Assembly (NCBI RefSeq): GCF_044324785.1
Contig: NZ_CP172127.1
Length of the DNA stretch: 64,000 nucleotides
Direction: 5' to 3' (one strand)
Source: Escherichia coli
Lineage (GTDB): Bacteria > Pseudomonadota > Gammaproteobacteria > Enterobacterales > Enterobacteriaceae
Shown: positions 3,918 through 7,436 of the stretch, piece after piece
Position numbering within the stretch: the stretch's first letter is position 1
Layout of the letters: each line of letters begins with the position of its first letter
Position numbers and translations under genes: made by a program
The notes under the pieces: generated by a model
The model's database searches: none
Told to the model about the DNA's origin: nothing
Seen by the model: the letters and a program-made list of their open reading frames with translations, nothing else

Positions 3918-4868
3918 TTATAGTTTGGCGGCAAGAAGATCTTCCAGTTTGCGTTGATCAACGGCGAACAGACGAATGCCTTCAGACAGTTTTTCTACCG
4001 CCATCGCATCCTGATTGTGCTCCCAACGGAACTCCGCTTCGCTCATGGGAGCTGGGCGTGGGAACGTCTGAGAAGATGGGATTAATTTACGTACCACTGG
4101 CGAAACTTTTTCCTGCAGCTCCTTCAGCAAATTCGGTGCGATAGTCAGTCGATCGCAGCCGGTTAAGGCGAGGATTTGTTCGGTGCGACGGAAGCTCGCG
4201 CCCATCACAATGGTTTCATAGTGGTGTTGCTTATAGTAGTCGTAGATATTGCGTACTGATTTAACGCCTGGATCTTCTTCCACCACATACGGGTCCATCG
4301 GCTTGCGTGCCTGATACCAGTCATAAATACGCCCGACAAACGGCGAAATAAGAAATACGCCTGCTTCTGCACAGGCCCGCGCCTGTGCAAAAGAAAACAG
4401 CAGCGTCAGGTTGCAGTTAATACCTTCTTTTTCCAGCTCTTCTGCCGCGCGAATTCCTTCCCAGGTTGAAGCCAGCTTGATCAAAATGCGTGATTTCTCA
4501 ACGCCTTGTTGCTGATACAAGTCCACCAGATGGCGCGCTTTCTCAATACTCTTTTCTTTATCAAAAGAGAGGCGTGCATCAACTTCTGTTGACACGCGAC
4601 CGGGTACGATTTTGAGAATTTCAGCACCGAAATTGACCGCCAGTTTGTCACACGCTGCGACCACCTGTTGTTCCTGGGTCTTGCCATTTTTTTTACCCCA
4701 GGCGATAGCATCGTCTATTAAATGCTCATATTGTGATAATCCGGCAGCCTTGAGTAACAGCGAAGGATTGGTGGTGGCATCCTGGGGATGATAATGGCGA
4801 ATGGACTCAATATCGCCGCTGTCTGCCACGACAGTGGTGAACTGTTTGATGCCGTCTAACTCGTTCAT
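3918..4868 (-). CDS. talA: transaldolase A
   Basis: 316-aa [22 protein letters not shown]...; immediately upstream of tktB on the same strand (talA-tktB operon). Confidence 0.9.
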
Positions 4869-5156
4869 AGGAAATACTCCTTGAAAAGTAAAGTGTTAGA
4901 TGAGTGCGTTAATTCACACTTCTGAGAAATTTCGCTAAACGCATCAAAAAAGCATAGCAGACAGGCATGGTATTGCTGGATTAAGCAGGTAACATCAGTG
5001 TTATAGGATTATTACCAAAACATTATATTAATGGTGAGAGTTTGGACTTGCTCAAAGTCTGTAGACTCCGGCAAGGTAATAATGTGCGCCACGTTGTGGG
5101 CAGGGGCTGTTGCCCACACACTTTACTTGTGAACGTTACGTGAAAGGAACAACCAA

Positions 5157-7436
5157 ATGGATGACCAGTTAAAACAAAGTGCACTTGATTTCCATGAATT
5201 TCCAGTTCCAGGGAAAATCCAGGTTTCTCCAACCAAGCCTCTGGCAACGCAGCGCGATCTGGCGCTGGCCTACTCACCAGGCGTTGCCGCACCTTGTCTT
5301 GAAATCGAAAAAGACCCGTTAAAAGCCTACAAATATACCGCGCGCGGTAACCTGGTGGCGGTGATCTCTAACGGTACGGCGGTGCTGGGGTTAGGCAACA
5401 TTGGCGCGCTGGCAGGCAAACCGGTGATGGAAGGCAAGGGCGTTCTGTTTAAGAAATTCGCCGGGATTGATGTATTTGACATTGAAGTTGATGAACTCGA
5501 CCCGGACAAATTTATTGAAGTCGTCGCCGCGCTTGAACCGACCTTCGGCGGCATCAACCTCGAAGACATTAAAGCGCCAGAATGTTTCTATATTGAACAG
5601 AAACTGCGCGAGCGAATGAATATTCCGGTATTCCACGACGATCAGCACGGCACGGCAATCATCAGCACTGCCGCCATCCTCAACGGTTTGCGCGTGGTGG
5701 AGAAAAACATCTCCGACGTGCGGATGGTGGTTTCCGGCGCGGGTGCCGCAGCAATCGCCTGTATGAACCTGCTGGTAGCGCTGGGTCTGCAAAAACATAA
5801 CATCGTGGTTTGCGATTCAAAAGGCGTTATCTATCAGGGCCGTGAGCCAAACATGGCGGAAACCAAAGCCGCATATGCGGTGGTGGATGACGGCAAACGT
5901 ACCCTCGATGATGTGATTGAAGGCGCGGATATTTTCCTCGGCTGTTCCGGCCCGAAAGTGCTGACCCAGGAAATGGTGAAGAAAATGGCTCGTGCGCCAA
6001 TGATCCTGGCGCTGGCGAATCCGGAACCGGAAATTCTGCCGCCGCTGGCGAAAGAAGTGCGTCCGGATGCCATCATCTGCACCGGTCGTTCCGACTACCC
6101 GAACCAGGTGAACAACGTTCTTTGCTTCCCGTTCATCTTCCGTGGCGCGCTGGACGTTGGCGCAACCGCCATCAACGAAGAGATGAAACTGGCGGCGGTA
6201 CGCGCGATTGCAGAACTGGCCCATGCGGAACAGAGTGAAGTGGTGGCTTCAGCTTATGGCGATCAGGATCTGAGCTTTGGTCCGGAATACATCATTCCAA
6301 AACCGTTTGATCCGCGCTTGATCGTTAAGATCGCTCCTGCGGTCGCTAAAGCAGCGATGGAGTCGGGCGTGGCGACGCGTCCGATTGCTGATTTCGACGT
6401 CTACATCGACAAGCTGACGGAGTTCGTTTACAAAACCAACCTGTTTATGAAGCCGATTTTTTCCCAGGCTCGCAAAGCGCCGAAGCGCGTCGTTCTGCCG
6501 GAAGGGGAAGAGGCGCGCGTTCTGCATGCCACTCAGGAACTGGTAACGCTGGGGCTGGCGAAACCGATCCTTATCGGTCGTCCGAACGTGATCGAAATGC
6601 GCATTCAGAAACTGGGCTTGCAGATCAAAGCGGGCGTTGATTTTGAGATCGTCAATAACGAATCCGATCCGCGCTTTAAAGAGTACTGGACCGAATACTT
6701 CCAGATCATGAAGCGTCGCGGCGTCACTCAGGAACAGGCGCAGCGGGCGCTGATCAGTGACCCGACAGTGATTGGCGCGATCATGGTTCAGCGTGGCGAA
6801 GCCGATGCAATGATCTGCGGTACGGTGGGCGATTATCATGAACATTTTAGCGTGGTGAAAAATGTCTTTGGTTATCGCGATGGCGTTCACACCGCAGGTG
6901 CCATGAACGCGCTGCTGCTGCCGAGTGGTAACACCTTTATTGCCGATACTTACGTTAATGACGAACCAGACGCAGAAGAGCTTGCGGAGATCACCTTGAT
7001 GGCGGCAGAAACTGTTCGTCGTTTCGGTATTGAACCGCGCGTGGCTCTGTTGTCGCACTCCAACTTTGGTTCTTCTGACTGCCCGTCGTCGAGCAAAATG
7101 CGTCAGGCGCTGGAACTGGTCAGGGAACGTGCACCAGAACTGATGATTGATGGTGAAATGCACGGCGATGCAGCGCTGGTGGAAGCGATTCGCAGCGACC
7201 GTATGCCGGACAGCCCTTTGAAAGGTTCCGCTAATATTCTGGTGATGCCGAACATGGAAGCTGCCCGCATTAGTTACAACTTATTGCGCGTTTCCAGCTC
7301 GGAAGGTGTGACTGTCGGTCCGGTGCTGATGGGCGTGGCGAAACCGGTTCACGTGTTAACGCCGATCGCATCGGTACGTCGTATCGTCAACATGGTGGCG
7401 CTGGCTGTGGTTGAAGCACAAACCCAACCGCTGTAA
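5157..7436 (+). CDS. maeB: NADP-dependent malic enzyme (malic enzyme domain fused to a phosphotransacetylase-like domain)
   Basis: 759-aa [32 protein letters not shown]...; length and sequence match MaeB. Confidence 0.9.

Follow-up and report, generated by a model that had tools for sequence, protein, structure and literature searches.

The divergently transcribed genes talA and maeB (malic enzyme) flank a 288-nt intergenic region in the 64,000-nt stretch of Escherichia coli DNA analysed here (the window). In the annotation of the nearly identical region of E. coli O157:H7, tktB is found beside talA and eutS follows maeB. The sequence at 5090–5130, cacgtTGTGGGCAggggctgtTGCCCACAcactttacttg, contains an inverted repeat with arms of 8 nt each, identified by a repeat finder as 100% complementary and spaced by 8 nt. 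Including a G-U pair between G5103 and U5110, the stem comprises nine pairs (five of them G-C) and closes a loop of 6 nt. An inverted repeat with a stem of 8–9 bp had been noted in an earlier sequence-only reading, and this description holds, with eight perfect pairs and one G-U. Its placement in the divergent intergenic region, ahead of the maeB ribosome-binding region, is likewise confirmed, with 38 nt separating the stem from the ATG. The features of the locus are listed in Table 1.

Folded as RNA, the hairpin (5091–5130) has an energy of −15.5 kcal/mol (z = −1.82), which is matched by 8 of 200 dinucleotide shuffles; the fold of the 91-nt context around the repeat (z = −0.22) is not unusual. 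The predicted pair probability of the stem is approximately 1 (range 0.73–1.0) and is alike in the leader contexts of both promoters described below, P1 and P2. A perfect 8-bp repeat with a loop of 3–10 nt is present in about 3% of shuffles of the intergenic region. Across the window, 26 perfect 8-bp repeats of comparable kind are found, against about 6 in shuffles. The repeat is therefore real and locally mildly non-random, and it is one among many like it in the window. Its sequence occurs as a single copy per genome. An Rfam scan of 4600–5500 gave no relevant match; two hits at chance level (E = 0.99 and 6.7) are located away from the repeat.

Table 1. Coordinates of genes, promoters and leader elements at the talA/maeB locus (window numbering)
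Feature	Position	Strand	Basis or remark
talA	3918–4868	−	ORF list and RefSeq annotation of the 99.7% identical region of E. coli O157:H7
Predicted ArcA box, four direct repeats	4987–5029	+	under ChIP-seq peak; Park et al. 2013, PMC3798270
Promoter P1: −10 TATATT (5024–5029), mapped TSS G5036	5024–5036	+	Kim et al. 2012, PMC3415461
Predicted promoter P2: −10 AATAAT (5078–5083), GC-rich discriminator GTGCGCC (5084–5090), predicted start A5091	5078–5091	+	homology
Left arm of inverted repeat, TGTGGGCA	5095–5102	+	repeat finder
Loop, GGGGCTGT	5103–5110	+	G5103-U5110 can form the ninth pair; no GGA motif
Right arm of inverted repeat, TGCCCACA	5111–5118	+	repeat finder
Tail, CACTTTACTTG: 3-nt spacer, then interrupted U-rich run	5119–5129	+	counterpart of the T5–T6 run kept in other genera
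GTTACGTGAA (also written GUUACGUGAA), complementary to Spot 42 nt 44–53	5135–5144	+	10 contiguous pairs; Spot 42 sequence verified
Shine-Dalgarno AAGGA (5144–5148), maeB start codon (5157–5159)	5144–5159	+	sequence, ORF list, annotation
maeB (malic enzyme)	5157–7436	+	ORF list and RefSeq annotation of the 99.7% identical region of E. coli O157:H7

Promoters of maeB and position of the repeat in the transcript

A scan with the sigma-70 consensus called no promoter, and the promoters were therefore taken from published maps of transcription start sites (TSSs). The genome-wide map of Kim et al. (2012; PMC3415461 supplement) gives a single maeB start, at NC_000913 2576520 on the minus strand (611 reads), with a 5′ UTR of 121 nt and an upstream sequence that ends in ...ATTATATTAATGGTG. 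This start (P1) corresponds to G5036 of the window. As the mapped start lies upstream of the repeat, by 59 nt, the repeat is transcribed and occupies +60 to +83 of the P1 mRNA, in agreement with its earlier assignment to the maeB leader. The sequence-only reading had set one combination against a function, that of a repeat that is not conserved and is located upstream of the mapped start. The first half applies, as the repeat is not conserved (see below), but the repeat is downstream of the mapped start.

P1 is overlapped by the ArcA box, which covers −49 to −7 relative to the P1 start. Park et al. (2013; PMC3798270) reported the ArcA site at 2576527–2576569, with a peak in one replicate and a fold change of 4.9 for maeB. 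ArcA binding at P1 together with the 4.9-fold control of maeB indicates that P1 transcripts read through into maeB.

In Salmonella SL1344, dRNA-seq (PMC3293720 supplement) places the primary maeB TSS 8 nt after GATAAT, giving a 48-nt UTR, and a secondary start gives a UTR of 136 nt. The corresponding −10-like box is kept across Enterobacterales as GATAAT, GATACT or TATACT and reads AATAAT in E. coli. Because this box is conserved and the Salmonella primary TSS lies at the homologous site, we place an E. coli P2 start at A5091; a second maeB start is thus predicted close to this position, 4 nt ahead of the hairpin. For maeB, the map of Kim et al. contains P1 alone and does not include the P2 start. 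No match for maeB was found in an E. coli Cappable-seq table, and the Romero 2014 supplement has no maeB entry.

P2 has no recognisable −35 element. A block at 5036–5061, GAGAGTTTGG-N5-(C/T)TCAAAGT(C/T)T, is kept in E. coli, Enterobacter, Klebsiella, Citrobacter and Salmonella, with the E. coli version the most diverged. It corresponds to +1 to +26 of the P1 mRNA and to about −55 to −30 of P2, and an activator of P2 could bind there. Within this otherwise conserved upstream block, E. coli has a small palindrome of its own (AGTCTGTAGACT, 5056–5067) with 5-bp arms and a 2-nt spacer.

Variation of the repeat within E. coli and across genera

The region 5080–5120 is identical to the window in 4819 of 5424 complete E. 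coli genomes. The substitution G5100A is found in 558 of the 5424 (about 10%; examples are SF-468, E10 and N39) and places an A across from C5113, without compensation. In this allele the predicted probability of the repeat pairs falls to about 0.01, and a weaker GGGC/GCCC hairpin (−10.3 kcal/mol) is predicted instead. The rest of the species has G5100, including one O25b:H4 strain and RMDEC465, the most divergent genome sampled, and 5100A is therefore most simply the derived state. Six genomes make up the lowest identity band over 5080–5120, of which RMDEC465 is the one examined. Its loop is changed by a 1-nt deletion, and C5114T retains the pair as G-U (−12.5 kcal/mol). Further E. coli polymorphisms, at 5071, 5074, 5121 and 5126, are located outside the stem. 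Position 5126, in the U-rich tail, is C in the window (CTTTACTTG) and T in all 5424 RefSeq complete E. coli genomes; C5126 also occurs in other public isolates (L214, L215) whose MaeB protein is identical to that of the window.

For the comparison between genera, Citrobacter, Enterobacter, Leclercia and other named genomes supplied leaders, alongside 42 distinct variants found in metagenomes and the leaders of Salmonella and Klebsiella pneumoniae. The genome scan for MaeB gave 17 Enterobacterales loci with no Escherichia outgroup among them, and the 42 metagenomic leaders all belong to other genera, the E. coli type having been left out by design. Look-ups of the MaeB and TalA clusters gave Salmonella and Klebsiella and no E. 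albertii, E. fergusonii or other Escherichia species. As no other Escherichia species is in the comparison, covariation in the E. coli arms was judged from variants within the species alone.

Three blocks are common to the leaders: GAGAGTTTGG-N5-TTCAAAGTTT; the −10 box with its GC-rich discriminator; and a T-run that leads into GA.CGATACGTGAAAGGAA and the ATG. The spacer from the discriminator to the T-run is variable, with 36 nt in Salmonella, 44–45 nt in Citrobacter, 54 nt in both E. coli and Enterobacter cloacae, up to 59 nt in most other lineages and 84 nt in one. The E. coli repeat is located in this fast-evolving spacer, between conserved blocks. Its sequence is absent in Salmonella, Citrobacter, Enterobacter, Klebsiella, Leclercia and all other genera compared. 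Conservation across the Enterobacteriaceae, which had been proposed as a check on the repeat, is thus a property of the flanking blocks and not of the repeat itself. Most other genera have a hairpin of different sequence at the same place, often abutting the T-run (for example, GCGGC/GCCGC in Salmonella and GGGTG/CACCC in the Enterobacter group). In Salmonella, the primary (P2-type) start falls inside the local hairpin, and a 5′-terminal hairpin is therefore not a conserved feature. The folding energies of the spacers are ordinary when compared with shuffles (mean z −0.3 over 44 leader variants; −0.25 and −0.7 for E. coli), and the GGGTG/CACCC helix of the other genera is 88% paired with covariation no better than in shuffles. 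The entire spacer is missing from three metagenomic contigs (L105, L133 and L172) with otherwise Enterobacter-type leaders; about 43 nt are deleted between the −10 box and the CGATACG block, and both hairpins and the T-run are gone. Given the uncompensated stem-breaking G5100A, the divergent or absent spacer elsewhere and the lack of a covariation or folding-energy signal, constraint on the stem is weak.

The sequence-only reading had offered a regulator binding site as one function of the repeat. A perfect 8-N8-8 dyad could be the DNA operator of a dimeric transcription factor, which would obstruct transcription downstream of P1 and cover the first transcribed nucleotides of P2; at the positions concerned, +60 to +83 relative to P1 and roughly +5 to +28 relative to the predicted P2, repressors can act. 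However, the palindrome is absent in all other genera compared, whereas the promoter and the ribosome-binding flanks are conserved, and the dyad is asymmetric in the 558 E. coli genomes with G5100A. The arm centres are 16 bp apart, or about 1.5 helical turns, a spacing that would be unusual for a symmetric dimer. There is one copy per genome with no regulator gene adjacent, and the ArcA site at 4987–5029 is the only published regulator site found for the intergenic region. We regard an operator as highly improbable, and the suggestion is not upheld.

The same comparison bears on whether the hairpin has any function. A GC-rich palindrome that arose by chance in a spacer with rapid turnover, and that persists in most E. 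coli merely through the young age of the species, would fit a sequence confined to E. coli, a spacer that differs elsewhere in sequence and length and has been lost in three leaders, and a derived stem-breaking allele that is uncompensated in 558 genomes. It would also fit the lack of any thermodynamic or covariation signal and the 26 comparable repeats in the window. It agrees less well with a local fold better than 96% of shuffles, with the occurrence of such a repeat in only 3% of shuffled intergenic regions, with the pairing retained via G-U in the RMDEC465-type variant and with the presence of some hairpin at this position in most genera. A neutral origin of this kind is possible though somewhat unlikely, and a functionless by-product is almost as probable as the passive structural role discussed below.

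Terminator-like tail, ribosome-binding region and RNA-binding regulators

A scan marks 5095–5118 together with CACTTTACTT as terminator-like, and the loop size and hairpin strength are typical of terminators (GC-rich stem of 5–14 bp, loop of 3–8 nt). The hairpin and its U-rich tail might then act as a leader attenuator or pause site that stops part of the P1 transcripts before maeB, with the possible release of a 5′ UTR-derived RNA of about 90 nt. The stems of Salmonella, Citrobacter and Enterobacter adjoin a T5–T6 run (tail scores −4.6 to −5.2), and in all RefSeq E. coli the tail is the U-richer TTTATTT. However, the E. coli stem is followed by a CAC spacer and an interrupted U run, with a tail score of −2.0 in the window (UUUACUU) and −2.15 in K-12 (UUUAUUU). 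Both scores are weaker than the usual terminator cut-off, and the uninterrupted U-tract directly after the stem that marks an intrinsic terminator is lacking in the E. coli tail. P1 transcripts do reach maeB, as ArcA at P1 controls the maeB mRNA. The sole available antiterminator pairing is one of 4 bp, CCAC/GUGG, and several lineages (L084, L101, L104, L112) have the hairpin without the T-run. The name maeB is absent from the accessible part of the supplementary text of an E. coli 3′-end map (Term-seq; PMC7815308). Taken together, attenuation or pausing at this site is unlikely.

The arrangement resembles the pyrBI and trp leader attenuators in having a hairpin and then a U-rich stretch within the leader. 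It differs in that the U run of maeB is interrupted and offset by CAC, there is no convincing antiterminator, and the leader ORF is not conserved. This ORF (MCATLWAGAVAHTLYL, 16 codons, 5082–5132) runs through the hairpin, as does pyrL in its leader, and has AAGG 5 nt upstream; short ORFs begin at the same ATG in Salmonella and some Citrobacter. Attenuation through a leader peptide was considered and rejected. The ORF is frameshifted in RMDEC465 by the 1-nt loop deletion, its ATG is missing in many genera, and it begins upstream of the predicted P2 start.

An effect on maeB translation via the ribosome-binding site had been the other proposal for the repeat. In the predicted fold the arms pair solely with each other, and neither takes the Shine-Dalgarno sequence or the start codon as a partner. 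For the Shine-Dalgarno region, an unpaired probability of 0.62 is predicted when the stem is present and of 0.61 when it is lost through G5100A, and the proposal thus finds no support. A structure that sequesters the Shine-Dalgarno sequence, or an RNA thermometer, was discarded since the stem does not pair with this region.

A 16-nt inverted repeat (88%) relates 4881–4896 to 5118–5133, and the two copies give near-identical RNA, ACACUUUACUU(U/G)U(C/G)AA. Each copy is located just upstream of a ribosome-binding site, that of talA and that of maeB, respectively. In Salmonella the talA copy is unchanged, and in Enterobacter it is U-rich. The likeness may merely reflect U-rich segments preceding the Shine-Dalgarno sequences. 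The talA leader also has a small hairpin of its own on the minus strand at about 4910–4928 (AGUGUG...CGCACU), which is still pairable in Salmonella (AGUGUG...CACACU).

Two post-transcriptional regulators have been connected with maeB. CsrA represses a maeB 5′ UTR reporter and has a predicted site in the Shine-Dalgarno region (PMC6028588). The small RNA Spot 42 is reported to interact with maeB mRNA, with 2.1-fold repression (PMC8534726). The segment complementary to Spot 42 is part of a conserved ACGTGAAAGGAA block, the most conserved block of the leader, just before the Shine-Dalgarno sequence. On the basis of this complementarity, we propose it as a candidate pairing site for the reported interaction. 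The energy of the Spot 42 duplex at the maeB leader, with duplexes computed on individual single-stranded leader regions, is no better than with shuffled leaders.

The hairpin itself could be a docking element for an RNA-binding regulator, either as a CsrA site or, with the U-rich tail, as an Hfq module for Spot 42 at 5135–5144. The regulation of maeB by CsrA and Spot 42 and the 10-bp Spot 42 match 17 nt downstream of the stem are in line with such a role. CAGGA, a CsrA-type motif, is present in the corresponding loop of many other genera, and a GGA arises in E. coli through G5100A. However, GGA is absent from the common E. coli loop, GGGGCUGU. In the CsrA model, most of the highest-ranking sites fall close to the Shine-Dalgarno sequence (about −13) and the others between −76 and −17, provided that the numbers following the sequence in the supplementary row are site positions counted from the start codon. 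The duplex energy noted above also counts against an Hfq module, and a literature search found no CLIP data for the hairpin site. The maeB leader is similar to the glgC type of CsrA-bound hairpin in that CsrA regulates it, GGA occurs in its Shine-Dalgarno region and a hairpin is present upstream within bridging distance; it differs in that the E. coli loop has no GGA, the CAGGA at that place being found in other genera only. We consider docking on the hairpin quite unlikely.

A combined form, in which the hairpin is a weak regulated leader terminator or an Hfq-docking module and the P1 transcripts are split between a 5′ UTR-derived small RNA (about 90 nt, from 5036 to near 5128) and the full-length maeB mRNA, appears very unlikely. 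If it were true, the split would be tuned by two natural alleles, G5100A (about 10% of E. coli genomes) and T5126C (the window's lineage).

A proposed passive stem-loop in the maeB leader

The best reading of the data is that of an ordinary leader hairpin whose structural or stabilising role is modest at most, and which is neither an operator nor a translational switch. The hairpin is an E. coli-specific GC-rich stem-loop set between the −10 box and discriminator of P2 on one side and the block of U-run, Spot 42-complementary segment and Shine-Dalgarno sequence on the other. We tentatively propose, with a probability of about 0.4, that it is a passive RNA structural element, serving as a 5′-proximal protective hairpin for the predicted P2 mRNA and as an insulator that keeps the 3′ regulatory portion of the leader accessible. 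On the predicted P2 mRNA, the stem would begin 2–4 nt from the 5′ end and could impede 5′-end-dependent decay by RppH and RNase E. In either mRNA, the hairpin would close off the upstream sequence, so that the ribosome, CsrA and Hfq/Spot 42 would find the last 38 nt single-stranded. Any such effect would be expected to be modest and dispensable.

The 5′-terminal stem-loop of the ompA 5′ UTR (hp1) is reported to hinder 5′-end-dependent decay (Emory, Bouvet and Belasco 1992). Like hp1, the maeB hairpin is GC-rich and stable, is situated close to the 5′ end of its leader and precedes an open ribosome-binding region; in the predicted P2 transcript, 2–4 nt would be unpaired ahead of the stem. It differs in that the sole mapped E. 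coli maeB start is 59 nt upstream of the stem and in that the hairpin is not conserved across genera. The stem is thus within about 4 nt of the 5′ end for the predicted start at A5091 but not for the mapped start at G5036. A search of the literature on the maeB promoter, leader structure, CLIP and intergenic binding sites found nothing on the hairpin.

By itself the hairpin is of little consequence, an unremarkable member of a familiar class, and of all parts of the maeB leader it seems to be under the least constraint. The natural G5100A allele is a ready-made test of its function. What is useful is the map of the leader, which comprises two promoters, the variable spacer that carries the hairpin, and a conserved block of U-run, Spot 42-complementary segment and Shine-Dalgarno sequence. 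maeB occupies a node in central carbon and NADPH metabolism, and control by ArcA, CsrA and Spot 42 converges on its leader.
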